Positions 8,991 to 28,128 of a stretch of DNA of 38,521 bases are shown here, one piece after another. Every line of letters begins with the position of its first letter. Position 1 is the first letter of the stretch. Origin of the DNA: an uncultured Chloroflexaceae bacterium. Lineage in GTDB: Bacteria; Chloroflexota; Chloroflexia; Chloroflexales; Chloroflexaceae. The stretch covers positions 1-38,521 of the forward strand of contig CAZLKK010000001.1 in the NCBI GenBank assembly GCA_964559995.1, read 5' to 3'. The position numbers were made by a program, and so were the translations under genes. The notes beneath the pieces were generated by a model, which made no database searches, was not told the DNA's origin, and saw only the letters and a list, made by a program, of their open reading frames with translations.

Positions 8991-9304
8991 CTATAATATT
9001 TAGCTTTGTGCGCCTTTGCTATGACCCGCATAATCCTGGTTCGCTTCCCTACGCTATCACGGGATGAGTCTGGTCAACATCGGTTTGCTCGCACAAGCCC
9101 AAGACGGAAACGGCTTGGGTCATTGACTCCCTCTATATAAACGAACACGTCCTGCATAATTTCTCCAGGATACCCTCTTCTTATGATAGCATCTCTTGGC
9201 TAAAATCGCCACATTGCAATGAGGAGAAAATAGGATTATGGCAAAGTCTAAGTTGCTCCCTAACCCCTGCCCCCGCTCCTTTCAAGGGTAGGTCAAATGG
9301 GCAA

Positions 9305-9394
9305 TTTTTTTATTTCCCTCTCCCCCCTGCCCCCGCTCCCAGAGGACAAGGGGGAGCCGTCCGATCTTCCCTTCTCCCGCTTGCGGGGAAAAAG
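9305..9394 (+). repeat. ~90-nt G/C-rich structured intergenic repeat element, copy B (plus orientation), with an extra partial core at 9264..9279
   Basis: Sequence: TTTTTTTATTTCCCTCTCCCCCCTGCCCCCGCTCCCAGAGGACAAGGGGGAGCCGTCCGATCTTCCCTTCTCCCGCTTGCGGGGAAAAAG. The core CCCCTGCCCCCGCTCC is repeated at 9264..9279. Related copies occur at 31347..31420 and 37317..37517. Confidence 0.7.
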
Positions 9395-9429
9395 TAGGGA
9401 TAGGGGCTGACCGGATATTGACACAGCCC

Positions 9430-9438
9430 TGGTATAAT
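9430..9438 (+). promoter_or_regulatory. Putative extended -10 promoter box TGGTATAAT for the SDR gene
   Basis: Exact TGGTATAAT ends 48 nt before ATG 9487. The same 9-mer recurs at 16397..16405 and 20778..20786, both on the minus strand. Confidence 0.45.
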
Positions 9439-9486
9439 AGTCCTCAATGTCTTGATACCATACGGTGAAAGGAACGAACATTCAAT

Positions 9487-10425
9487 ATGCCAAACACACA
9501 TACCCCCCATTCCCCCAACGGCTCCCGCAAACTTGGCATGCTCATGGGAATAGCCGGGGCGTTAGCCGGCGGCATCATCGCCTGGAAGCGCATCCAACGA
9601 CAACCGTTCATCCCCACCCCGCAAATGCGCGTGGTATTGCCAACCCCCGCTCCCCACAACGCCGGTACTGCACTCATTACCGGCGCGTCTAGCGGTATAG
9701 GGGCAGCCTATGCCCAACGTCTAGCAGCAATCGGCTATGATCTCATTATCGTGGCACGGCGCGAGGATCGACTCCAAACATTGGCAACAGATATTGAGCA
9801 AAAGCATGGGGTATCGGTAGAGGTGCTCGTGGCAGACCTTGCTGTCCCCGCGGATGTAGACCGCGTAGCCGAGCGTATAGCCGCATGCGACACGCTCACG
9901 ATGCTGGTCAACAACGCTGGTTTTGGCTTGATTGGCGCGTTTGCCGATTTGCCCATAGAAAAGCACATGGCAATGATCCATGTGCATGTCTTGGCAAGTG
10001 TGCGCTTTTGCCATGCAGTCCTACCGGGCATGCTGGCGCGGGGGCATGGCAGCATCATCAACGTTTCCTCCATTGCAGCTTTCTTGCCACGCCCTAACAA
10101 CGTCATCTATAGCCCAACGAAAATGTACCTCAAGACCTTTACCGAAGGGTTGCGAGAAGAGCTAGATGGCAGCAATATTCAGTTGCAAGTAGTGTTTCCC
10201 GGCTTGACCAAAACCGAGTTTTTTGATCGCCCTGAGATAGGTGGTACACGGGTCAAGGTTCCTGAATTTCTGTGGATGACTGCTGAGGAAGTGGTAGATG
10301 GGTCGCTCAAGGCGTTACAGCGGGGGCAGTTTTCCTGTTTACCGGGGGCAAAAAACCGTTTGCTGCTGTTTTTGCTTCGCAACAGAGGGATGCTCAAGGG
10401 GTTTCGACGGTTGATAGCGAGATAA
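9487..10425 (+). CDS. SDR-family NAD(P)-dependent oxidoreductase with an N-terminal hydrophobic segment
   Basis: 312 aa. Motifs: LITGASSGIGAAYA (TGxxxGxG), LVNNAGFG, NVSSIAA ... YSPTKMY (Ser/YxxxK catalytic motif). The N-terminal LGMLMGIAGALAGGIIAW looks membrane-spanning. Confidence 0.85.
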   Translation: MPNTHTPHSPNGSRKLGMLMGIAGALAGGIIAWKRIQRQPFIPTPQMRVVLPTPAPHNAGTALITGASSGIGAAYAQRLAAIGYDLIIVARREDRLQTLATDIEQKHGVSVEVLVADLAVPADVDRVAERIAACDTLTMLVNNAGFGLIGAFADLPIEKHMAMIHVHVLASVRFCHAVLPGMLARGHGSIINVSSIAAFLPRPNNVIYSPTKMYLKTFTEGLREELDGSNIQLQVVFPGLTKTEFFDRPEIGGTRVKVPEFLWMTAEEVVDGSLKALQRGQFSCLPGAKNRLLLFLLRNRGMLKGFRRLIAR

Positions 10426-10448
10426 CCAAATCACGGGTAGTTTGGTTT

Positions 10449-10476
10449 GTAGAGCTGTTGCATGCAACGGCTCTAC
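10449..10476. terminator. Strong hairpin between convergent genes (SDR stop 10425, STAND stop 10492); a candidate bidirectional terminator
   Basis: GTAGAGCTGTTG-CATG-CAACGGCTCTAC forms a 12-bp stem (one G-U pair) with a 4-nt loop. There is no clear U-run on either side, so terminator function is inferred from position only. Confidence 0.5.
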
Positions 10477-10491
10477 AATCAAGACTCCCCC

Positions 10492-13400
10492 CTACAAATC
10501 TGCCAGCAAGATGGCGGCTTCGGTCTGTCCGCGGTAATAGCCGGTTTGGTTGCTCAACTGTTGGGCATAGGACGCTTCTGTATGGGCAGTCTCACGATCC
10601 CCTATCGCCATGTAGACATACGCCAACGCAATGCGGATAGCTGCCTCGTGGAGCCGATAACCCCCCGCCATCGCTAGGCTTAGGGCTTCTTCTAGTGAGC
10701 TACGGGCTACCTGAAAGGCGGATATATACTCTTTGGGGGGTTCCGGTTGGGGAGGAGCATTACCCCCCCTTGCCATCCCCGATTGTTCATCATAACGTGC
10801 CTGCCTCCGCTCGGCGGAGGCGGACAACCGCTCCTTTATCTGGTTGACAAACGTGCGCTCAGGACGGAAGGGCAACTGCTCTGAGATGCCATCTATGAGC
10901 TTAATCCACCCGCCACCAGTATTGCCCCGCGTGGTAGGGGCTTGGGCATCCAGCGGCACCCGCAACGAACGTCCGCGAGTACGTGCTCTCGTCCCCACCC
11001 GCGCCACAGTAAATCGCCTAGCAGTCTCCGGGTTGCTCTGTACCCAGAACTTACGCGAGGTTGAGGAGTCCCCGTCTTCTGTTGCCGTGTCCTTATCCCC
11101 ATCGAGGTCTTCATCGTCTAGCCCCGGCTCATCCTCAACCACCGGGGTAACTTTTTCGCTGAGGAGTGTGGCGATTGTCCGTTGTTGGGTATCTGATGGG
11201 GTTTCGCTGTCGTCTTCGCCTACGCTTTGATCATCTGCCAACCCGATGCTGCCTACGCCTCGCGCCGCCCATAGCCCCCGTGCCAACAACGTTTCAATGA
11301 GCACGAGCCGCCGTGGGATGCCCCGCGCTACCTTGATAGCTTCCTGGTAATGCTGATAGGCAGTCTCTTGGTTTCCCTGCTGGCTATCCAGATCAGCCAA
11401 GATACGATAGCAACGGCTGATCTCTTCTTTCCAGTTGTAGTGTTGGCAGAGCTTCAGATTGGCTTCTATTACCTGGCGTGCTGTATCCATACTGCCAGTC
11501 TGATAGAGATGCTCTGCATACCACCCCCCCCGCTGGTTATAGAGCGAGTAGACATCCGGGTTAGCCTCTCGTTCTAGCAGTTCTGCCCAAACAAAGGTAG
11601 AACGAGCCATAACAAAGTGTCCGCACAGGTGGGCAACCCATGCCTGAAGTGACGATGCCAGCATCTCAAGGTAGCGGTTTTGTGCCTGCCGTGCCAGCAT
11701 AAGCGATTGGCGAATGTATGCGCTGCTTTCGGCAAGCATCCCCCGCTCCATAGCCACATACGCAAGGTGGTAAGCGGCGGTATGGGCGGTGTGCCAGTTT
11801 TGCGCTTCAGTTGCAAGCGTGAGACATTGGCGATAACAAATCGCAGCTTTGGGATACTCGCCTAGATAGTAAAAACAACGGGCAGTTTGGTCAAGCAGGT
11901 GGTAGCAGTGGGTTGTATCGTCAAGTAGCGGCGGTTGGGTAATGTCGCCATTTGGGAAAAATTCCAAGAACAGTGTGCAAGCCAGTTCATACGCGCCCAT
12001 TTGGTCAGTCAAGATACTGACCTCTTGTTGTTGACAGAGATAGTCTTGGTATATGTGCCACGCCTCCGCATATGCCCCCGCTTGGCAGGCGTGGTAGCAG
12101 GCTTCCCTAGCAGGCACTAGATCATGGAGCGTGGGGAGCGGTTGATCGCGCTCGACCAGCGAGAGGTAGTACTCTTTGATGGTATGGTGCAAAGCGGGGA
12201 GTTGGGGGTGTATATCCACCAACTGCACAAGGCGGTTTCGAGCGTAGGTATGGATGAGCGGGTGCAAGATGAAATACCCCTCCTCCTCATCGTAGGTAAG
12301 AATACGATAGTTGACCAGTTGCTCAAGCATCTGTTGGAAGGTGTCATCTTCCAACGCGAGCAGCGGGTCAAGCAATATATCGAACAGGCTGCACGCGTCT
12401 TCGGTCTCTGCTGCATTTTCCCCAACCTCTGGCTCTATTGGCTCTGTTGGTTGCTCTATCTCACTGTCTGGCTCATTCCCCCCCCCATCCGTCTGCTGTG
12501 CCATACCCAGCCGTGTGTCCCCGTTTGCATCCTCCCCATTATCGGGGATGCTGATAGCGCGGGTGGTGCTGGTACCGCTGGTGATAATGGTGATAGTCCG
12601 TGCCGCGGGGGGGGATGCTACGGGAGAATCTTCCCCCCCATCCCCTGCCTCATCGTCTACACCAGGGGGAGCAGGTTCTTCGGTTCCCCCTTGCTCTGTA
12701 TGGGAGCGGGGGCTAGGGGGAGCGGGGGCATCTTCCCCCCCATCCCCTGCCTCATCGTCTACACCGGTGGCATCATCATTGATACACAGAACCACAGAGT
12801 CCGGGCAGGAGACCCCAGTCAAGAGTTCATGATAGACCTCGTTATTGTCAGACTCTTTCTGTTTCTGTGTTTCTGCATCTCTGTCAGATGTCTCTTGTTC
12901 GGACTCCGTGCCACTCCGTGTTTCCGTGTCTCCGTGGTGAACTTTGTCCGGTAGACATCCCTTTGAAGAAACATCTTCCCCCCCATCCCCTGTCCCATCG
13001 TCTATTGTGGGGGGAGCAGGTTCGTCATCCCCTGCCCCACGTCCCACGAGGGGAGAAGGGGAGTCGTTAGGGGGAGCGGGGGGGGCAGGATTATCTCGCA
13101 CCGAGATCGCTATACCCGTTGATTTACGGAGGGGAATAGACGATGATCTTGGCTCACGCTTGGCAGTATCTGCAATGTCATTATCAGCAGCAGTATCGGG
13201 GTCATCAGGGATGGTGATTTCTATGCCCATTGGGATGCGGAAGGGGATGTCGTCATCACCATCATCATTGCCCCTACCCCTACTACCACCACGGCTCCCC
13301 CGAACAACAACGCGATTACTTGGAGTACCTTGCCAATCGCTTGCTTCATCTCTGTTATCAGTATCCCCTGCATCCTCGATGCCCTCTGCGTCCTCGATGC

Positions 13401-15102
13401 CCTCTGTGTCCTCGATGCCCTCTGCGTCCTCGATGCCCTCTGCGTCCTCGAAGCCCTCTGCGTCCTCGCTGCTTTCCCCAAAGGTAGGCTCACCTTGCAC
13501 TATCTCCATCCCCATTGCTGGCGATTGTGGGGGGGCAGGATAATTCCCCTCGGCAAGCAGCTGGAGCATACGGTAGCGTGCCAAAAAAGCGTCACCATTG
13601 CCCTGATAGGTCTGCATCAGGTAGCTACTCATCATACAGAGCGTCAGCGGGTGAGCATCACACGCTGCGACAATTTCGTCTAGCGTTTCCGTGCTGCCCT
13701 TTAGCCCTAGCCGTTGGGCAAGCGCATACCCTTCATCAGGCAACAGCGGCGGCAACTGATGCTGCGTGTAGGAGGGATAGTCAAGCAGATCAAAGATAGG
13801 GGTACGACTGATCAGCACACAGAGCGAGCCATGTTTTATACCAGCAAGGTAGGCGAGAAACTCGCGCAAGTTGGGGCTAGTCAGCATCCCATATTGCTCA
13901 CTATCCTGATGCAACAGCGTTTCTATGCCGTCTAGGATGAAGAGCGATGGACGGCTCGTGACCATTGCGCCGAGGGTCTGCACCCGCATACTCGTTGACG
14001 GCAGCAAGTGGGGGTCTATGCGTGTGCCGCTCAGGTGGGTGAGGGCAGCCAACAAAAACTCATCCACACTCCCCCGCTCCTGAAAATTCCACCAAAACGC
14101 GCTTTCTGGTTGGCGTATCGTCTTATCTGACCACACCTTGCGGAGCCAACGGCGCACCAGACTACTTTTGCCCTGTCCTGCTGCGCCTACGACTCCTACC
14201 ACCTGACAATGGGGATTGCTCAACGCTTCGCTCAAGTGTTGAACCATTGGTTCTTGCCCCACCCAGCGGGTTACAAGCGGCGGTGCATCATACAGCATCT
14301 TACCCGCCCGCGGTATCGCCATCGGATGGGTTGTTGCCCCATCACTGCGTGGGTGATAGCCGGTGCGCTTTCGCATTGGCATATCGTACACCGACACCCC
14401 AAAGGGAGCTTTGCTCAAGATACGGCTACTCACTGCCCAAGCCTTTGGAGTATCCGTTTTGGCTACAACCGGTTGGGATGTGTTTCCAAAGGGGGAGAAG
14501 CTCATCGGAGCGGTAGTTGTGGGGGGGGGAGCAGGAGCAACGATACCAACAACCAAATTGCGCTCAATATCCAAAATAGCCGACCCTGCCAAGTGGTCTA
14601 TTGGCTGCGAGGGACTCAACTTGATACTACCGGGGGGGGCAGCAGGTCCTGCCATACCCGGTAGGGATTGGATCGTCCCTTCAACAAGGACCGGCTTGGG
14701 TTGATCTGCCGAGAAGCCATAGCAACGGAAGGGATGATTGAGCGAACGCTCTGGTGTGCCAAGCACCGCGATCTGCTCTGGGGCAAGCGGTACTTGCCCA
14801 TCCGTCAAGCGCAACAGCACAACAGGCTCCCCATTCGGAGCCATGCTATGGAGTGCGGCACGGGAGGAGTTGGGCAAATCGCTGCCTATTTGGGGAAAGA
14901 CCACAACCACCTCTTGTTCTGGCAGGGAGGTTGTGGGATTCGCTGGCAGGGTAATACCAGCGGCTGCGACAACAGACGGGGCAGTTGCTATGAGACCATC
15001 TCGTGAGACAACAATACCTGCGCCGACAAGTTCACCGGTATGCGGATGGCGGAGTTGGACAGTGAAGTCGCGCAGGTTTTGTAAGCGAATATTGGGATTC
15101 AC
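10492..15102 (-). CDS. STAND NTPase: degenerate trypsin-like domain, NB-ARC-type P-loop ATPase, ~360-aa acidic low-complexity insert, winged helix, and a TPR array carrying a second insert
   Basis: 1536 aa; GTG start 25 nt after the ArsA-like stop.
- N-terminus: GAGIVVSRDGLIATAPSVV ... EPVVLLRL ... CYGF ... AGSAILDIERNLVVGIV follows the Trypsin_2 pattern, but without the usual His and Asp.
- NTPase: Walker A VVGAAGQGKSSL, Walker B SLFILDGIETLL, then LISRTP and LPPLLPDEGYALAQ.
- Winged helix: LVNYRILTYDEEEGYFILHPLIHTYARNRL.
- C-terminal half: TPR-like helical repeats such as CFYYLGEYPKAAICYRQCL and AYHLAYVAMERGMLAESSAYIRQSL. Confidence 0.75.
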   Translation of the reverse strand: MNPNIRLQNLRDFTVQLRHPHTGELVGAGIVVSRDGLIATAPSVVAAAGITLPANPTTSLPEQEVVVVFPQIGSDLPNSSRAALHSMAPNGEPVVLLRLTDGQVPLAPEQIAVLGTPERSLNHPFRCYGFSADQPKPVLVEGTIQSLPGMAGPAAPPGSIKLSPSQPIDHLAGSAILDIERNLVVGIVAPAPPPTTTAPMSFSPFGNTSQPVVAKTDTPKAWAVSSRILSKAPFGVSVYDMPMRKRTGYHPRSDGATTHPMAIPRAGKMLYDAPPLVTRWVGQEPMVQHLSEALSNPHCQVVGVVGAAGQGKSSLVRRWLRKVWSDKTIRQPESAFWWNFQERGSVDEFLLAALTHLSGTRIDPHLLPSTSMRVQTLGAMVTSRPSLFILDGIETLLHQDSEQYGMLTSPNLREFLAYLAGIKHGSLCVLISRTPIFDLLDYPSYTQHQLPPLLPDEGYALAQRLGLKGSTETLDEIVAACDAHPLTLCMMSSYLMQTYQGNGDAFLARYRMLQLLAEGNYPAPPQSPAMGMEIVQGEPTFGESSEDAEGFEDAEGIEDAEGIEDTEGIEDAEGIEDAGDTDNRDEASDWQGTPSNRVVVRGSRGGSRGRGNDDGDDDIPFRIPMGIEITIPDDPDTAADNDIADTAKREPRSSSIPLRKSTGIAISVRDNPAPPAPPNDSPSPLVGRGAGDDEPAPPTIDDGTGDGGEDVSSKGCLPDKVHHGDTETRSGTESEQETSDRDAETQKQKESDNNEVYHELLTGVSCPDSVVLCINDDATGVDDEAGDGGEDAPAPPSPRSHTEQGGTEEPAPPGVDDEAGDGGEDSPVASPPAARTITIITSGTSTTRAISIPDNGEDANGDTRLGMAQQTDGGGNEPDSEIEQPTEPIEPEVGENAAETEDACSLFDILLDPLLALEDDTFQQMLEQLVNYRILTYDEEEGYFILHPLIHTYARNRLVQLVDIHPQLPALHHTIKEYYLSLVERDQPLPTLHDLVPAREACYHACQAGAYAEAWHIYQDYLCQQQEVSILTDQMGAYELACTLFLEFFPNGDITQPPLLDDTTHCYHLLDQTARCFYYLGEYPKAAICYRQCLTLATEAQNWHTAHTAAYHLAYVAMERGMLAESSAYIRQSLMLARQAQNRYLEMLASSLQAWVAHLCGHFVMARSTFVWAELLEREANPDVYSLYNQRGGWYAEHLYQTGSMDTARQVIEANLKLCQHYNWKEEISRCYRILADLDSQQGNQETAYQHYQEAIKVARGIPRRLVLIETLLARGLWAARGVGSIGLADDQSVGEDDSETPSDTQQRTIATLLSEKVTPVVEDEPGLDDEDLDGDKDTATEDGDSSTSRKFWVQSNPETARRFTVARVGTRARTRGRSLRVPLDAQAPTTRGNTGGGWIKLIDGISEQLPFRPERTFVNQIKERLSASAERRQARYDEQSGMARGGNAPPQPEPPKEYISAFQVARSSLEEALSLAMAGGYRLHEAAIRIALAYVYMAIGDRETAHTEASYAQQLSNQTGYYRGQTEAAILLADL
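12628..13004 (-). repeat. In-frame direct repeats inside the STAND low-complexity insert
   Basis: Perfect 36-nt repeat ATCTTCCCCCCCATCCCCTGCCTCATCGTCTACACC at 12628..12663 and 12730..12765, with a diverged third copy at 12973..13004. On the minus strand these encode ..GVDDEAGDGGED.. and ..TIDDGTGDGGED... Confidence 0.85.
13374..13468 (-). repeat. 18-nt tandem repeat, about 5.5 units, in frame (hexapeptide ED(A/T)EG(I/F))
   Basis: The plus-strand unit CCTCGATGCCCTCTGCGT repeats from 13374 with single-base variants. It translates on the minus strand to EDAEGFEDAEGIEDAEGIEDTEGIEDAEGIED. Confidence 0.9.
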
Positions 15103-15127
15103 GATCTCGTTCAGACATCAACAGCAA

Positions 15128-16291
15128 TCAGCGCGTAAAGACCACATGCAGTTCTTCGTTTTCAAAGAACGCATCACGGGCATGGAGCCGTGCCAGCGAT
15201 TGTGGCAGCGCGACCCGGTGCCGATGCCAGCCAACAGAGATTAACAATTCATCAGCATTTTGGGCAAGGTGTATCTGGTCTTCAGAGACAAAGGGCAATG
15301 GCACGATAAGATCGTACCCTTGCGCGGTGCGCTCCACCCGTTGGGTTGGACCGGTGTAGAGAAACGAAGCCGGGTCTACATCTTCACCATAGAGGAGATT
15401 ACCCATCTCTTCAAGCATTTCTAACCCGACAATTTCGCGGGAAAAGTGACCCGATTTGAGTAAGGGCAAGGGGGAAAACATCTGCTCCACCTGGGGATAG
15501 TACCCCTGCTGCATCTCCTGCCAACTGGAGAAATGTCCATCTACATTGTCTGGCAGGATGCGATTGACGACCACGGCATCTACCGCATAGCCAAACAGCG
15601 ACAGATAGGTGAGGCTACGTTGGGCTTCCCGTATGACCATTTTTTCTAAGTTCATCACAATGCGGGCAGTGGTGGTTTGCTGGTCGGTGAGGATACTCCG
15701 TACCGCTACCAGCGAATCAATGGCATCTTGGGCAGAGACGAGTACATCATCCCCCGCGATGGGAATATCACTCACGCGCTTTGCCATAGGACGCACCACC
15801 TTGAGCACCCCCCGCACGATGGGGAAGAGACGCGAAATCCACCAACGCATAATTTCTGGCAACGCCAACAACCGCAGCGTTTCGCCGGTGGGGGCAGCAT
15901 CCACAACCAAGACATCAAATATGCCTTCGTCATAGTGGCGTTTTATCTGTAGCAGGCTAAACAGTTCTTCTGTGCCAGGGATAACCGAAAGTTCCCCCTG
16001 GGCAATAGACTCGACCCCTTGCCATGCCAAAAGGTCAGAAAGGTAGCGTTGTACATCGCCCCAGTTCATTTCTAGTTCGTGAAGGGCGTTTATTTCCTGC
16101 GCCCAGAGGTTGTCTGCAACCTGCATGGGTTCAGCCAACAGTTCAATACCAAAAGAATCTCCAAGCGAGTGGGCGGAGTCCGTGCTAAGGACAACCGTTT
16201 TGTGACCAAGTTTTGCACAGCGTAGCGCAGTCGAAGCGGCAACACTGGTCTTTCCTACCCCACCTTTGCCGGTGTAGAATAATATTCGCAT
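15128..16291 (-). CDS. ArsA/GET3/TRC40-family P-loop ATPase with an HSP20-like C-terminal domain
   Basis: 387 aa, ATG start. Motifs: MRILFYTGKGGVGKTSVAAS (deviant Walker A), STDSAHSLGDSF, VVDAAPTGETLRLL (DTAPTGHT-type switch motif with Glu in place of His). The C-terminal ~100 aa (YDLIVPLPFVSEDQIHLAQNADELLISVGWHRHRVALP) resembles the HSP20-like tail of bacterial and plastid Get3/ArsA homologs. Confidence 0.8.
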   Translation of the reverse strand: MRILFYTGKGGVGKTSVAASTALRCAKLGHKTVVLSTDSAHSLGDSFGIELLAEPMQVADNLWAQEINALHELEMNWGDVQRYLSDLLAWQGVESIAQGELSVIPGTEELFSLLQIKRHYDEGIFDVLVVDAAPTGETLRLLALPEIMRWWISRLFPIVRGVLKVVRPMAKRVSDIPIAGDDVLVSAQDAIDSLVAVRSILTDQQTTTARIVMNLEKMVIREAQRSLTYLSLFGYAVDAVVVNRILPDNVDGHFSSWQEMQQGYYPQVEQMFSPLPLLKSGHFSREIVGLEMLEEMGNLLYGEDVDPASFLYTGPTQRVERTAQGYDLIVPLPFVSEDQIHLAQNADELLISVGWHRHRVALPQSLARLHARDAFFENEELHVVFTR

Positions 16292-16396
16292 AGTTTAAAG
16301 TATCAGGCGTTTCAGACAAAACCCCGCAGGTACCGGGGGAACCTCCGGGTACAGTATGTTACCATATTTCCACTATTCAGCTAATCACAATGCCCC

Positions 16397-16405
16397 ATTA
16401 TACCA
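16397..16405 (-). promoter_or_regulatory. Putative extended -10 promoter box TGGTATAAT for the ArsA-like/STAND pair
   Basis: The plus strand reads ATTATACCA, so the minus strand reads TGGTATAAT. It lies 106 nt upstream of ATG 16291, in the 136-nt gap after the lipase-like gene. Confidence 0.45.
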
Positions 16406-16427: not shown

Positions 16428-17264
16428 CTACTCCCCCTCCAGCAACGGCGGCGGGGCAGGCAACACTGGCACATCTGCCGTTCCCGTTATCTGTGCTGGT
16501 GCAGGCGGTGTGGGGAGCTCTGGCGGCTCTGGCGGCTCTGGTGGCTCTGGTGGCTCTACCGTGTGCCACCACAAACGGACGATCTCCTCGTTATGCCCAT
16601 ACCATACCCGCGTATCAGGCAGCGGGTCGTGGCGTAGCCCCTCTAGTATCACATGCTCTGCCCCATCCAGCAGACCGCACGACAACGGCACAACCCCATC
16701 CCCCCACTGCTCCCCACTAGCACTCAACATCGCGTAGCTCTCCCACGCGCTCCGCTCTGCCCGTTCGCCATCTGGTATCCCCTGTATCCCTTGAGAAATA
16801 ACCGTCACATAGCGAATAAACCGCCAGTAGGCACCGGGGTAGTGCGTTTGGGCAAAGACAATCTGGTTGAGACCACCAAAACGTCCCTGTTTGGTTGTCG
16901 TATGGGGGGTACCAAGCGTAATGAGCGTTGTCACACGCTGGAAACCGTGAAAGACCAACTGCTCGTTGCCATAGGGTTGGTCGCCCATGTAGATACGCGC
17001 CAAAATCCCCCCGGCACTATGCGCTACCACCATAAGCTGTTGGGCGCGGGTGCGGCGGAGCGTGTCATTGACAGCAATATGCAGTTTCTTGAGCAAGGGG
17101 GTATAGTCATCACTCACGATAACCCCCAACCAGTCGAGGGTCACGAGGCGGGTAACGTATACGCGGCGTTGGGTGATGGACTCAAGGATATGGCGGAGCG
17201 GTTCGTAGGCTTGCCAACTTGCCCCAAACCCACCAATGATGAGAATTGGGAGATTCTCTGGCAT
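16428..17264 (-). CDS. Lipase/PGAP1-like alpha/beta hydrolase with a Pro-Glu repeat C-terminal tail
   Basis: 278 aa, ATG start. Motifs: ILIIGGFGASW, nucleophile elbow VVAHSAGGILA (A-x-S-x-G as in Bacillus-type lipases), LITLGTPH. The C-terminal tail reads VEPPEPPEPPEPPELPTPPAPAQ. Confidence 0.7.
   Translation of the reverse strand: MPENLPILIIGGFGASWQAYEPLRHILESITQRRVYVTRLVTLDWLGVIVSDDYTPLLKKLHIAVNDTLRRTRAQQLMVVAHSAGGILARIYMGDQPYGNEQLVFHGFQRVTTLITLGTPHTTTKQGRFGGLNQIVFAQTHYPGAYWRFIRYVTVISQGIQGIPDGERAERSAWESYAMLSASGEQWGDGVVPLSCGLLDGAEHVILEGLRHDPLPDTRVWYGHNEEIVRLWWHTVEPPEPPEPPEPPELPTPPAPAQITGTADVPVLPAPPPLLEGE
16518..16553 (-). repeat. 9-nt tandem repeat x4 encoding PEP repeats
   Basis: The plus strand reads CTCTGGCGG CTCTGGCGG CTCTGGTGG CTCTGGTGG. 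It is in frame in the hydrolase C-terminus. Confidence 0.85.
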
Positions 17265-17372: not shown

Positions 17373-17747
17373 CTAGGAGGAAGCCTGGGTCGTAGCGATA
17401 AGCGATTCTTGTTGCAAAAAGGCGAGGGCTTCCTCTTCACTGCCAAACATATGCACCCCCGCAAAGAGTTTCACCAGGGAAGAAAACAACAAGAGGTACG
17501 GCTGATTGACCACGAAAAAGTACATCCCAACATGGGGATGGTGCTTCACCTTCTCAATAATATTGCGAGCCACCGGGCAAGACGTATTCACCCCACGAGC
17601 ATTGATAAGAATGTTCGTAGGTTGTGGGCAATGATCTAGCATTTCCCACGCTTCTACATAGTAATTCTCGGCTGTCTCCCTATCTACATGCCCATTCATC
17701 TCCAATCGGAGCAGATTTGGTGCGAGTAATGACAGGCTATAAGACAT
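17373..17747 (-). CDS. Small hypothetical protein (124 aa), possibly with a STAS/SpoIIAA-like fold
   Basis: I place the start at ATG 17747 (MSYSLSLLAPNLLRLEMNGH...), with GAAGG about 9 nt upstream. The longer track ORF (to 17921) would overlap the upstream radical SAM gene. The functional guess rests only on size and an alternating strand/helix-like pattern. Confidence 0.45.
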   Translation of the reverse strand: MSYSLSLLAPNLLRLEMNGHVDRETAENYYVEAWEMLDHCPQPTNILINARGVNTSCPVARNIIEKVKHHPHVGMYFFVVNQPYLLLFSSLVKLFAGVHMFGSEEEALAFLQQESLIATTQASS

Positions 17748-25278: not shown

Positions 25279-26949
25279 ATGAGGACACCTTCAGGGAACG
25301 ATACCAAAGAGATAGCGGCGATCTACCGGCTGCGTATGGCAGAACAGGTTGCCACCCTGCCGTTTGCTGGTGTGACAGGCAAGGGCAGCCCCACTGCCCC
25401 CATACAAGCGGTGTTTGTGCCGCCTATGCTTGAACGTGAGGCAAACGTCTTTGCCCTAGCAGAAATGATGCTGGCGATGCAGGCAGGCAATGAGGCGGTG
25501 CATCCGCGAGAACTTCGCAAGCAGGGGGGACACACTGGCGAGCGTATGCCCCTATCGGATGCTCTCCATACCTCGCCCTGTATCGTATTGCTTGGGGAAG
25601 CCGGCGCAGGCAAAACAACGCTCCTTACCTATCTTACCCACTGCTGCGCTACGGGACAGGTAGCGCATGAGCCAGCATTAGCCGATGCATCGGGAAATGC
25701 GCTCTTGCCCCTGTTCATTTCGCTACGGGACTATGCCGGGGAATCTGCGACACGCAGCTTGGACTATAGTCTCATCCACCACCTCTACACGCTGGCAAAT
25801 GAACGATTACTCTGTGCTCCCCCCTACAAATTTTTTGAGGATGCATTGGAAGCGGGGCAGTGTTTGGTGTGCTTGGATGGGCTAGACGAGATATGGGATA
25901 TTGGGCAGCGCAAGACAGTAGCCGATGCTATCAGTGTGCTGGTATCCCGGTTTCCCCATAGCCGCTATCTTGTCACTTCGCGCAGTGCTGGCTATCATCA
26001 ATCCCCGCTCACCTATACGCTGTTTGAACACTACACGCTGCTGCCCCTAAATGATGTGAGTATCCATCTGGTGATCACCCGCTGGTATCAGGTGGATGAT
26101 GCTGTCCCCCAAGCAGCGCAAGCGCAACGGGCAACCACGCTCTGGGAGACGATAGAGCGCGAGCCACAGACTCGCACGCTTGCCCGTTCGCCCCTGCTCC
26201 TGATGCTCTATTGCCTGTTGCATGGGTCAGTAACCTCCCTGCCCCATGAGCGAGTGCGGCTCTATGCTACGGGGATTGCCCATATGATTACCGGTTGGAA
26301 ACAGGCTATGGGGGTGAGTGCTGATGAAGATGCCCACCCCTTGTATGCTATGCTGCCAAAGTTGATGGAGTTTCTTGCCTATGAACTGCATAGTCACGCT
26401 GAGCAGCCGGGGCAGAGGCAGACGATGACCGCCGATATGCTTCACCGTTTGCTGACCAGTTGGGTTATGGAGCAAGCGCGGTTGATGGGGAGCGAGGCAG
26501 GAGGTACGGTAGGTGATGAACAGGTCAGCAGGTTTCTAACCCGCTTGCAAGAGACCCCTGGGCTATTGAGAGAAGTACATCCAGGGGTGTTTGCTTTTGC
26601 TCATCTTGCCTTCCAAGAATACCTAACGGCTTGTGCCATAGAAAAGCAGGTAGCCCATCGGGGGGGAGAACTGCTCTGGAGCGAGATACAAGACCACTTG
26701 CATACCCCCCATTGGCGCGAGATTATCCTTTTCCTCATGGGCAGTCTCAGCACGATGAGTACGCTTACCACGGAGGTAGCCAAGCGCATTATGCAGCTTG
26801 GTGAGCAAGATATATTTGAGCCAGTGTTGCATCGCCACCTCTACCTTGTGGCAGGCATCCTCTCAACGAGCGGCAATGTGACGGCAGAACTGCGCCAGCA
26901 TGTGGTAGAAACGATCCTGCATATTGCCCGTACAACCAAATTGACCTAG
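25279..26949 (+). CDS. NACHT-family STAND NTPase, ending at an in-frame TAG that interrupts a HEAT repeat
   Basis: 556 aa. Motifs: Walker A IVLLGEAGAGKTTLLTYL, Walker B CLVCLDGLDEIWD, YLVTSRSAGY. There is no N-terminal effector domain, only about 100 aa before the P-loop. It is in the same reading frame as 26962..28128. Confidence 0.8.
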   Translation: MRTPSGNDTKEIAAIYRLRMAEQVATLPFAGVTGKGSPTAPIQAVFVPPMLEREANVFALAEMMLAMQAGNEAVHPRELRKQGGHTGERMPLSDALHTSPCIVLLGEAGAGKTTLLTYLTHCCATGQVAHEPALADASGNALLPLFISLRDYAGESATRSLDYSLIHHLYTLANERLLCAPPYKFFEDALEAGQCLVCLDGLDEIWDIGQRKTVADAISVLVSRFPHSRYLVTSRSAGYHQSPLTYTLFEHYTLLPLNDVSIHLVITRWYQVDDAVPQAAQAQRATTLWETIEREPQTRTLARSPLLLMLYCLLHGSVTSLPHERVRLYATGIAHMITGWKQAMGVSADEDAHPLYAMLPKLMEFLAYELHSHAEQPGQRQTMTADMLHRLLTSWVMEQARLMGSEAGGTVGDEQVSRFLTRLQETPGLLREVHPGVFAFAHLAFQEYLTACAIEKQVAHRGGELLWSEIQDHLHTPHWREIILFLMGSLSTMSTLTTEVAKRIMQLGEQDIFEPVLHRHLYLVAGILSTSGNVTAELRQHVVETILHIARTTKLT

Positions 26950-26961
26950 CAGCAAGATGCA

Positions 26962-28128
26962 GTGCGGGTACTTGGGCGTATGGAAGGTGATGGGTATGTG
27001 GCTATGGGATTGCTTGAACTTGCCTGTGACCCGAACGTCGAGCCGGTGGTACGACTTGAATCGGCAACAGCGTTGGGGAAACTTGGACACGTTGACGAAG
27101 CAGCACAAGCTCTCGTGACGTTAGCCCACAACCCACAACATGATCTATGGTGTGCGCGGGCAGCGGCGGTAGTGCTTGGGTCGTTGGGACGCAAGGATGA
27201 AGCGGCAGAAGCCCTCTTAGCCCTAGCCCGCGACCCGCAGGGCAGCATCCGTGAGCGATGTGCGGCGGCGGTAGCCCTGGAGACTCTAGGACACCGCGAT
27301 GAGGCAGTAGAGGTGTTGTTGATGCTGGCACGCGACCCCCAGGGGGATGCGGCAGTACGGCGCAATGCAGCGGAGACGCTTGGGCGGCTTGGACACCATG
27401 AGGCTGCTGCTGAGGTGTTGTTGGACTTGGCTGGTAATGCGGCACAGAACGCATGGCAAAGACGCTATGCTGCTGAGGCGTTGGGGATGCTTGGACGTAG
27501 GCAAGAAGCGGCGAGTATTCTATTGGCACTCGCCCAAGACCCCTCGCTAGAGAGCCGCGTTCGCCGCTTTGCAACTGAATCCTTGGGGACGCTTGGCTAC
27601 CAAGATGAGGCGGTCTTTGCTGGCTTGCTCAAGTTGGCGCAGGATTTTTCGCGTAGCCCGTGGGAACGTACCACGGCGGCGATGGCTCTGGGCAAACTTG
27701 GGCGCAAAACTGATGCGGTGGGGGTGCTGATGAGTCTAGCGCACGATACGAGCAAGGGACCATCGGTGCGCCGTGCGGCATCGGTTGCGCTTGGCAATCT
27801 AGGCTACCCAGATGAGGCGGCAGAGGTCCTGATGGCGTTGGCGTGTGATTCGTTTGGCGACCCGTGGGAACGGTGTACGGCGGCGATGGCGATGGCTTCG
27901 TTGGGACGCACTGATAAGGCGGTGTTGGATAGTCTGCTCACGTTAGCCCACAATCCCAAAGCCCAAGATGATGAACGGGCAACAGCAGCGGTGGCACTTG
28001 GTAAACTTGGACGTAGCGAGGAAGCAGCAAAGGTGTTGTTAGCATTGGCATGCGATACCGATGTAGCGGGGTGGGTGCGGCGCACGGCGTATGATAGCCT
28101 CAAACGGCTCGTGGGTAGCCGGGGGTAG
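26962..28128 (+). CDS. HEAT-repeat (PBS-lyase HEAT-like) protein; probably the C-terminal sensor part of the upstream NACHT gene
   Basis: About eleven ~31-aa repeats of the type (D/E)EA.EVLL.LA.DP...(W/V)(E/R)R..AA.ALG.LGR. The track start is GTG 26962, with no convincing RBS there or at ATG 26980. Frame continuity across TAG 26947..26949 was checked by hand. Confidence 0.75.
   Translation: MRVLGRMEGDGYVAMGLLELACDPNVEPVVRLESATALGKLGHVDEAAQALVTLAHNPQHDLWCARAAAVVLGSLGRKDEAAEALLALARDPQGSIRERCAAAVALETLGHRDEAVEVLLMLARDPQGDAAVRRNAAETLGRLGHHEAAAEVLLDLAGNAAQNAWQRRYAAEALGMLGRRQEAASILLALAQDPSLESRVRRFATESLGTLGYQDEAVFAGLLKLAQDFSRSPWERTTAAMALGKLGRKTDAVGVLMSLAHDTSKGPSVRRAASVALGNLGYPDEAAEVLMALACDSFGDPWERCTAAMAMASLGRTDKAVLDSLLTLAHNPKAQDDERATAAVALGKLGRSEEAAKVLLALACDTDVAGWVRRTAYDSLKRLVGSRG

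Follow-up and report, generated by a model that had tools for sequence, protein, structure and literature searches.

In the Pepco-protease-STAND modules of bacteria, the trypsin domain of a STAND sensor cuts the C-terminal tail of its partner Pepco (also named Trypco1) upon recognition of a phage protein, and once the tail is gone the Pepco oligomer, a beta-barrel, becomes a toxin that permeabilises membranes; this Pepco-dependent toxicity disappears when the catalytic serine is mutated (bioRxiv 10.1101/2025.11.14.688446). Kaur, Burroughs, Iyer and Aravind (2020, PMC7159879) were the first to note the pairing of Trypco with trypsin domains, and they proposed peptide-binding and decoy or dominant-negative roles for those peptidase domains of conflict systems that are inactive. 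Get3d proteins are defined by a Get3 fold joined to a C-terminal alpha-crystallin domain and are reported to be universal in cyanobacteria, green sulfur and green non-sulfur bacteria, and binding of tail-anchored proteins has been demonstrated for plant Get3d (Barlow et al., 2023, PMC10248533). Here we describe a locus in which a get3d gene is followed directly by the gene for a STAND protein whose N-terminal protease domain is dead. It lies at the edge of a bacteriochlorophyll (BChl) c cluster in a 38,521-nucleotide (nt) stretch of DNA from an uncultured Chloroflexaceae bacterium (contig CAZLKK010000001.1), which we refer to as the window.

The window STAND protein shares with Pepco modules such as SsPepco-SsAvs4 (bioRxiv 10.1101/2025.11.14.688446) the layout of trypsin-fold head, STAND NTPase and TPR repeats, and the homology is direct, at 30-45 % identity over residues 1-530 to family relatives that have Trypco1 upstream. 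In both cases a partner gene stands immediately upstream on the same strand, but in the window that slot holds get3d and not Trypco1/Pepco. Where the Pepco modules have a catalytic triad the window protein has Ser43, Pro93 and Ala172, and it differs further in an acidic, probably disordered insert of ~370 residues between its helical domain and its winged helix. The mechanism that defines these modules, proteolytic activation of a pore-former, is impossible in the window. The inactive peptidase domains of Kaur et al. (2020), and MamO, keep the trypsin fold without the triad and under constraint, as the window head does; the inactive trypsin domains of that study, however, are carried by the vWA component of MoxR-vWA ternary systems, whereas the dead domain described here heads an otherwise intact NB-ARC-type STAND protein and the window contains neither MoxR nor vWA genes. 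With Avs1-5 the locus shares a grammar of effector head, STAND NTPase and TPR sensor, and to that extent the Avs-type layout proposed in an earlier note on this DNA stands; Avs-like killing, by contrast, is unavailable to a protein lacking both a catalytic head and an effector gene. Against PADLOC-DB 2.0 the window STAND protein gives a weak generic TPR match and none to an Avs model, and Get3d gives no informative match; orthologues, a Trypco1 protein and three paralogues likewise match no Avs model, the paralogues giving weak RT-Protease_XI and generic TPR matches. Because the triad and the Pepco gene are missing and PADLOC returns no Avs match, we do not file the locus as a member of either class.

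The pair is laid out as follows, with the reading frames, the gap and the GTG start as the earlier note had them:

10492..15102, minus strand: STAND gene, 1536 amino acids, GTG start (open reading frame call confirmed)
15103..15127, minus strand: spacer of 25 nt from the get3d stop to the STAND GTG, without a terminator-like hairpin
15128..16291, minus strand: get3d, 387 amino acids, ATG start (open reading frame call confirmed)
16397..16405, minus strand: extended -10 promoter box TGGTATAAT, part of the invariant TATGGTATAAT; the get3d ATG follows 105 nt downstream

Relatives of the STAND protein, collected by a word-indexed search and an exhaustive HMMER search, form a family of 216 representative clusters at E<=1e-30, mostly of ~1000 residues and built from Trypsin_2, NB-ARC or NACHT, and TPR domains. 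The neighbourhoods of two relatives showed a small gene matching Pfam Trypco1 directly upstream, and a custom hidden Markov model (HMM) places Trypco1 in the same position and orientation in 52 of 69 further paralogue loci with enough upstream sequence. Get3d is found in 0 of 82 paralogue loci. Conversely, an HMM search for Trypco1/Pepco gave no match at E<=1 in the window or in orthologous loci, and a hidden Trypco1 or Pepco partner is rejected on that result. The window STAND protein is a triad-dead, Trypco1-less derivative of the Pepco-protease-STAND defence module and no orphan design; the parent module of Trypco1/Pepco with a trypsin-STAND-TPR protein had already been described (PMC7159879; bioRxiv 10.1101/2025.11.14.688446).

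As a separate observation on the paralogues, ~8 of the loci that lack Trypco1 (L094, L106, L108, L129, L146, L147, L153 and L172) have in its place, immediately before the trypsin-STAND gene, the gene of a conserved ~140-residue membrane protein (MSAPFRIRRPD…FYLDRLLKMIPAEVV…) without a Pfam match; this protein may be an alternative protease-activated partner.

Alignment to triad-intact relatives places the family His, Asp and Ser opposite the following codons:

14974..14976, minus strand: Ser43, in TAPSVV, at the position of the catalytic His
14824..14826, minus strand: Pro93, in PVVLLRL, at the position of the catalytic Asp
14587..14589, minus strand: Ala172, in AGSAILD, at the position of the catalytic Ser

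All three catalytic residues are therefore lost, the nucleophile included, and we regard it as established from the alignment that the head is a pseudoprotease for which serine protease activity is impossible. The call of a dead protease head in the earlier note thus proved right, with the correction that the supposed Ser-region remnant AGSAILD preserves only a G-x-x-x-L-D scaffold from which the catalytic serine has gone. Such loss is unusual in the family, where the triad reads HDS in 113 of the 137 representatives with a protease-domain match in the exhaustive HMMER search; this count supersedes that of a metagenome sample, whose 67 intact triads out of 67 were biased by a search pattern containing the catalytic His. 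In the Get3d-linked orthologues the triad is broken in five of five, with different residues in each (SPA, APA, SGC, GDD and AGC). A neighbour-joining tree gathers all but one of the dead-triad representatives into a single clade, made up of the Get3d-linked group and ~9 sister representatives of shorter length; in several of the latter, just one of the catalytic residues is gone.

The adjacency of get3d and the STAND gene, with a gap of 4-25 nt, is kept in six lineages; the pair is thus conserved in related genomes, as the reading in the earlier note requires. Apart from the window and its sibling L001 (Get3d identical to that of the window, STAND 99 % identical), these are L083/L084 (Get3d 98 %, STAND 83-87 %), L085 (87 % and 43 %), L086/L087 (83 % and 37 %), L089 (80 %, with the STAND protein, P0199, reported at 42 %) and L088 (Get3d 81 %), in which the STAND protein is headless and split into parts of 297 and 750 residues (9285..12430). 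In L001, L085 and L089 the STAND orthologues after get3d have 1205-1588 residues. The STAND-linked Get3d proteins form one monophyletic clade in the neighbour-joining tree, and the adjacency is therefore a single ancestral event that has been kept since rather than a recurrent coupling. Outgroups without the STAND gene, in which get3d is followed by rpmG or unrelated genes, are L090 and L174 (Get3d 79 % identical to that of the window in each), L175 (78 %), L003 (76 %) and Chloroflexus L091 (75 %). Across 80 loci of other phyla (within 10 kb of Get3d) and four Chloroflexales loci, 1.35 Mb in total, tblastn and the family HMM found no STAND-family member near Get3d; a positive control showed this HMM to be specific to the window STAND family and to miss the NACHT gene of the window itself, so that the null result covers that family and not unrelated STAND types. 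Recurrence of Get3d with a STAND gene of the window family is accordingly rejected within this 84-locus scan, and the recurrent ArsA-like and STAND adjacency considered earlier gives way to one origin beside an ordinary Get3d that is STAND-less in its relatives. We found no Get3-STAND coupling in the searchable literature or in PADLOC, as the earlier note had supposed. A triad-dead, Pepco-less STAND protein fixed in an operon with Get3d is thus undescribed in the searchable literature, while inactive trypsin heads in conflict systems are already known.

Purifying selection acts on the folded domains of the STAND protein. Measured against L083, the ratio of nonsynonymous to synonymous substitution rates (dN/dS) is 0.17 in the head, 0.12 in the NB-ARC domain and ~0.4 in the acidic insert, compared with 0.14 for the neighbouring hydrolase, and over the folded STAND domains it lies between 0.12 and 0.24. 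Frames of 1205-1588 codons are uninterrupted in at least four lineages, although synonymous change between these has reached saturation, and all orthologues keep the NTPase motifs (Walker A GxxGxGKS, Walker B LDG[IL][DE], sensor SR, G/A-H-x-L and the winged-helix His). The protein evolves faster than its neighbours, with 43 % identity in L085 where Get3d has 87 %. At the level of the clade we read the signal as constraint, and we infer that the STAND protein has residual NTPase and oligomerisation activity.

The reading we favour, to which we give an even chance of being right, is that get3d and the protease-dead STAND NTPase gene form a clade-specific bicistronic unit in which the STAND protein derives from a Pepco-protease-STAND module, is no longer proteolytic and has been orphaned or exapted. 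In the parent module, oligomerisation upon ligand binding activates the N-terminal serine protease, which clips Pepco so that it forms a beta-barrel that permeabilises membranes. A STAND copy in the ancestor of one Chloroflexales clade would have lost Trypco1 and the catalytic triad and landed 4-25 nt behind get3d, under the extended -10 promoter of that gene at the edge of the BChl c cluster. It would keep its NTP-driven switch, with Walker A, Walker B, sensor and His motif intact, and its TPR sensor, while the pseudoprotease head could at most bind peptide. Because that head cannot cleave, the output would have to be non-proteolytic, perhaps scaffolding or sequestration, perhaps decoy or dominant-negative modulation of active paralogues. 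The link to Get3d would then be one of shared transcription and not of shared mechanism, the STAND protein being expressed from the get3d promoter through its landing site.

Several points weigh against this interpretation. The junction between get3d and the STAND gene has been preserved even as the gene after the STAND gene was exchanged (a short-chain dehydrogenase/reductase, SDR, in the window and L085, a Peptidase_M23 gene in L088 and L089), which could reflect selection for the pairing itself. The window allele lacks 46 residues of its winged helix relative to L001. In L088 the headless protein is divided into a nucleotide-binding plus helical-domain part (297 residues) and a winged-helix plus TPR part (750 residues) with overlapping stop and start codons, the split falling at the helical-domain/winged-helix junction, exactly where the window carries its acidic insert. 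P0166 is a STAND fragment of 322 residues, probably on the same 80.8-kb contig as a 92 %-identical Get3d. These signs of erosion argue that at least some STAND copies are dispensable, and the window strain may carry impaired alleles, or its assembly may contain errors. Expression of the STAND protein, like any ligand of it, is a prediction from the genes. Finally, triad loss, Trypco1 loss and the move behind get3d may have followed one another in any order.

There are two other main accounts, each of which we think improbable. According to the first, Get3d and the STAND protein are a genuine functional module in which the STAND protein guards or regulates Get3d or its tail-anchored clients. 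One version would make the TPR array and a peptide-binding head a regulated pre-targeting or quality-control partner, comparable in function to the TPR co-chaperones upstream of eukaryotic Get3. The tight, operon-like adjacency in six lineages, even as STAND identity drops to 37-43 % and the downstream neighbour changes, speaks for such a module, as do the conserved, dedicated promoter box before the pair, the purifying selection on the dead head and the occupation by Get3d of the slot that Trypco1 holds in paralogues. Yet the adjacency has a single origin, the Get3d of this clade is unspecialised with two fixed changes only, Get3d works without a STAND partner in all other Chloroflexales and cyanobacteria sampled, and in one lineage the head is gone and the gene is in two pieces; the interaction itself is a prediction drawn from gene arrangement. 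The more specific form of this idea, that exaptation has brought this protease-dead protein into the Get3d pathway of chlorosome-bearing Chloroflexales as an NLR-like guard or regulated co-chaperone monitoring Get3d or tail-anchored clients, using the TPR array and the peptide-binding pseudoprotease head in place of proteolysis, we regard as decidedly more doubtful. Were it true, a bacterial immune-receptor scaffold would have been recruited to membrane-protein targeting or its surveillance.

According to the second account, the STAND gene is a slowly decaying defence relic that has lost all function and is merely carried along by the get3d transcript. Triad residues that differ in every lineage, the loss of Trypco1 and the long, repeat-rich, length-polymorphic acidic inserts with their dN/dS of ~0.4 all fit decay, as do the headless, split gene of L088, the truncation of P0166, the missing winged-helix helices of the window allele and an in-frame stop in the window's other STAND gene. 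They have to be set against dN/dS of 0.12-0.24 over the folded domains, frames of more than 1200 codons intact across saturated synonymous divergence, and the retention of every NTPase motif. An active Avs-like antiviral system with Get3d or another trans-acting protein as its effector is hardly credible: the head/STAND/TPR architecture, the ancestry within a defence family and the rapid evolution of the STAND protein relative to Get3d would suit it, but the locus has neither a catalytic head nor Pepco nor any PADLOC Avs match, Get3d is a conserved housekeeping-type protein (dN/dS 0.05), and the STAND gene sits inside a vertically inherited pigment-biosynthesis block and not in a defence island.

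If the orphaned or exapted derivative that we prefer is what the window encodes, the locus is a natural example of a protease-activated STAND module after the loss of its toxin (Pepco/Trypco1) and triad, in which purifying selection has preserved the sensor/NTPase chassis, now part of the transcript of a conserved, photosynthesis-associated chaperone. It would provide a test case for non-catalytic roles (decoy, dominant-negative or scaffold) of pseudoprotease heads in prokaryotic NLR-like proteins, and a lead on the partners and clients of bacterial Get3d. The locus by itself does not define a new defence system; we see in it an evolutionary curiosity of a single bacterial clade, and its link to Get3d comes from a single ancestral gene arrangement.

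Shared transcription, on which the favoured reading turns, is suggested by the layout of the locus. The get3d-STAND gaps at orthologous loci are 25, 20, 20 and 4 nt; since the gaps of 4-20 nt are too small for a separate promoter and the window spacer holds no terminator-like site, we infer, with good support, that the two genes are co-transcribed as a two-gene operon. The promoter box reads TGGTATAAT on the minus strand at the place the earlier note gave for it. The enclosing TATGGTATAAT is invariant upstream of get3d in six of six STAND-bearing lineages although the surrounding intergenic sequence has diverged so far as to be unalignable, and it is missing upstream of get3d in five of five STAND-less Chloroflexales relatives. 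With this box, the short gap and the clean spacer, the proposal of one transcription unit is strengthened. The window has three copies of the 9-mer TGGTATAAT, at 16405 (minus), 20786 (minus) and 9430 (plus), compared with a chance expectation of ~0.3 occurrences in 2 x 38.5 kb; the copies lie just 5' of the starts of get3d, the first radical-SAM gene and the SDR gene. Because all three precede a gene start in the right orientation we take the motif for a local strong promoter type, and with further copies at L175 9287 and L007 9932 it looks like a generic strong extended -10 promoter of these Chloroflexales. Its single occurrence in the paralogue loci (L093) lies ~3.2 kb upstream of the Trypco1 gene, and the idea that the promoter was inherited from the defence module is rejected, TGGTATAAT being a generic local motif.

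The box sets get3d-STAND apart, as its own unit, from the upstream bch operon. This bears on the competing suggestion that the ATPase belongs with the adjacent photosynthesis cluster, which is partly right: the cluster is real, with genes that score above cutoff for a BchU equivalog and for a (bacterio)chlorophyll synthase of BchG/K type, and two B12-radical-SAM enzymes nearby, but get3d has a promoter box of its own, separate from that operon. From the BchU, synthase and radical-SAM genes the cluster is of BChl c type and belongs to a chlorosome-bearing Chloroflexales organism. Two further genes lie between the radical-SAM genes and get3d:

16428..17264, minus strand: PGAP1/DUF676-like alpha/beta hydrolase
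17373..17747, minus strand: small SpoIIAA/STAS-like protein

All STAND-bearing lineages examined have the hydrolase before get3d, and so does L003, which lacks the STAND gene and in which the hydrolase is 59 % identical; a 252-residue alpha/beta hydrolase before get3d in STAND-less L175 is possibly equivalent, homology to the window hydrolase being confirmed for L003 only. A role for it as a protease-activated zymogen partner, as in caspase-type pairs, is rejected, both because the hydrolase-get3d pair also occurs in STAND-less L003 and because the hydrolase belongs to the upstream operon, behind a separate promoter box. Between the promoter box and the get3d start, in the 105-nt leader, there is also a GC-rich hairpin followed by TTTTG at 16322..16338 (minus strand). 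This hairpin and T-run (16338..16322) is kept only in the closest lineage, L083, and a search of the leader against Rfam gave no match at E<=1, so that a structured RNA leader for get3d is rejected.

The Get3/ArsA-type ATPase with an HSP20-like tail that the earlier note had recognised agrees with Pfam, NCBIfam and motif evidence, and divides as follows:

15389..16291, minus strand: Get3/ArsA-fold ATPase domain, residues 1-301 (Pfam, NCBIfam)
15137..15322, minus strand: C-terminal alpha-crystallin/ArsA_HSP20 domain, residues 324-385 (PF17886)

It matches Pfam ArsA_ATPase (PF02374) at E 1e-89 and ArsA_HSP20 (PF17886) at E 2.6e-20, and NCBIfam GET3_arsA_TRC40 (TIGR00345) with 248.7 bits against a cutoff of 135. 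The motifs found are the deviant Walker A GKGGVGKT (residues 8-15) and DAAPTGETLRLL, and the Walker A lysine, the switch motifs and the catalytic Asp (STDSAH) are conserved. The translated sequence contains no CXXC, the Zn-binding motif of cytoplasmic Get3 (criterion from PMC10248533), and sequence matches in the PDB are to archaeal and eukaryotic Get3 and to All4481/NosGet3d. With AtGet3d and Nostoc All4481/NosGet3d (PMC10248533) the window protein thus shares the fold, the deviant Walker A, the alpha-crystallin domain and the lack of CXXC, and it is of the green non-sulfur type; the protein itself is no different from them, and what is unusual is its context at the edge of a BChl c cluster with a STAND gene behind it, where elsewhere in Chloroflexales rpmG or unrelated genes follow. 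It is 75-79 % identical to the proteins of Chloroflexus, Oscillochloris, Chloroploca and Viridilinea, among which it nests in the neighbour-joining tree, and up to 98 % identical within Chloroflexales; dN/dS against the 98 % relative is 0.05. A neofunctionalised Get3d is rejected, as the STAND-linked clade has two clade-specific substitutions only. As far as these data can tell, the window ATPase is an ordinary Chloroflexales Get3d orthologue, the highly constrained form usual in filamentous green phototrophs, and no specialised paralogue. It has every testable Get3d feature, and binding of tail-anchored proteins and ATPase activity are predicted for it. Non-phototrophs, too, commonly have full-length proteins of Get3 plus alpha-crystallin type (L004-L082; 41-55 % identity over residues 1-384), with examples from Actinomycetota, Brevibacillus, Paenibacillus, Cohnella, Dormibacterota, Spirochaetota and some archaea, and the Get3d architecture therefore extends beyond photosynthetic lineages.

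Pfam support for the STAND architecture is marginal. Trypsin_2 scores 20.9 bits, below its gathering score of 27.6; NB-ARC (24.5 against 23.5) and NACHT (26.9 against 26.7) barely pass theirs; TPR_12 reaches 32.6 bits against 30.1, and TPR_2, TPR_1 and TPR_MalT fall below their own gathering scores. For this reason two segments were modelled with AlphaFold2 and searched with Foldseek. The model of residues 1-260 has a predicted local distance difference test score (pLDDT) of 84.9 and a predicted template modelling score of 0.82 and matches HtrA1, HtrA, DegS, V8 protease and MamO (E ~2e-8, probability 1.0), while that of residues 261-540 (pLDDT 89.4) matches CED-4, an archaeal STAND-TPR protein, Roq1, the NRC1 NB-ARC domain, MalT and Apaf-1. 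The trypsin-like, NB-ARC, winged-helix and TPR architecture read earlier from the letters is thus supported, with the winged helix incomplete in the window allele. From the N-terminus the parts are:

14503..15102, minus strand: pseudoprotease head of trypsin/HtrA fold, residues 1-200 (AlphaFold2 and Foldseek, alignments)
13498..14277, minus strand: NB-ARC nucleotide-binding and helical domains, residues 276-535 (Pfam, motifs, AlphaFold2 and Foldseek)
14161..14187, minus strand: Walker A, GAAGQGKSS (motif alignment)
13921..13944, minus strand: Walker B, LFILDGIE (motif alignment)
13801..13818, minus strand: sensor ISR (motif alignment)
13639..13659, minus strand: DAHPLTL (motif alignment)
12397..13497, minus strand: acidic, repeat-rich insert, probably disordered, residues 536-902, between helical domain and winged helix
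12367..12396, minus strand: allele-specific in-frame deletion/replacement junction, 30 nt (ACSLFDILLD) in place of 168 nt in L001
11233..12366, minus strand: rest of the winged-helix domain and TPR sensor repeats, residues 913-1290 (Pfam TPR_12, TPR_2, TPR_MalT)
12253..12273, minus strand: winged-helix His motif, FILHPLI
10495..11232, minus strand: second low-complexity stretch (residues 1291-1465), then a conserved Ala-rich helical C-terminus (residues 1466-1536), by composition

The 168 nt of the 99 %-identical sibling L001 (residues ~903-963) encode the conserved first helices of the winged helix (…EEYLSTLELQLLMVLSLFRRPVDELAI…). The deleted motif, LTxxExxFLxxFSxFRxPV, is kept in all other aligned orthologues and paralogues, and the window protein thus has the His motif FILHPLI of its winged helix and is missing the first conserved helices. 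Residues 536-960 have a net charge of -77 and 24 % Asp plus Glu. Within the acidic insert an 18-nt tandem repeat runs for 5.8 copies at 13368..13472, encoding EDAEG[IF] repeats of which the window allele has one fewer than L001, and there are three DDEAGDGGED-like motifs; in L085 the insert is merely ~60 residues long. The region of residues 913-1290 is 42 % identical to L085 and alignable to paralogues, and the C-terminal 76 residues are 57 % identical in L085. Long open reading frames of 276, 173 and 199 residues on the opposite strand (12124..13543, plus strand) overlap the acidic insert and are most likely artefacts of its GA-rich codon repeats, not genes.

The window contains a second STAND gene, encoding a NACHT domain followed by HEAT repeats (25279..28128, plus strand), with an in-frame TAG at 26947..26949. 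On a near-identical JGI sibling contig the same gene lacks the TAG and gives a single 949-residue product, so that the TAG is either a nonsense polymorphism or a sequencing error.

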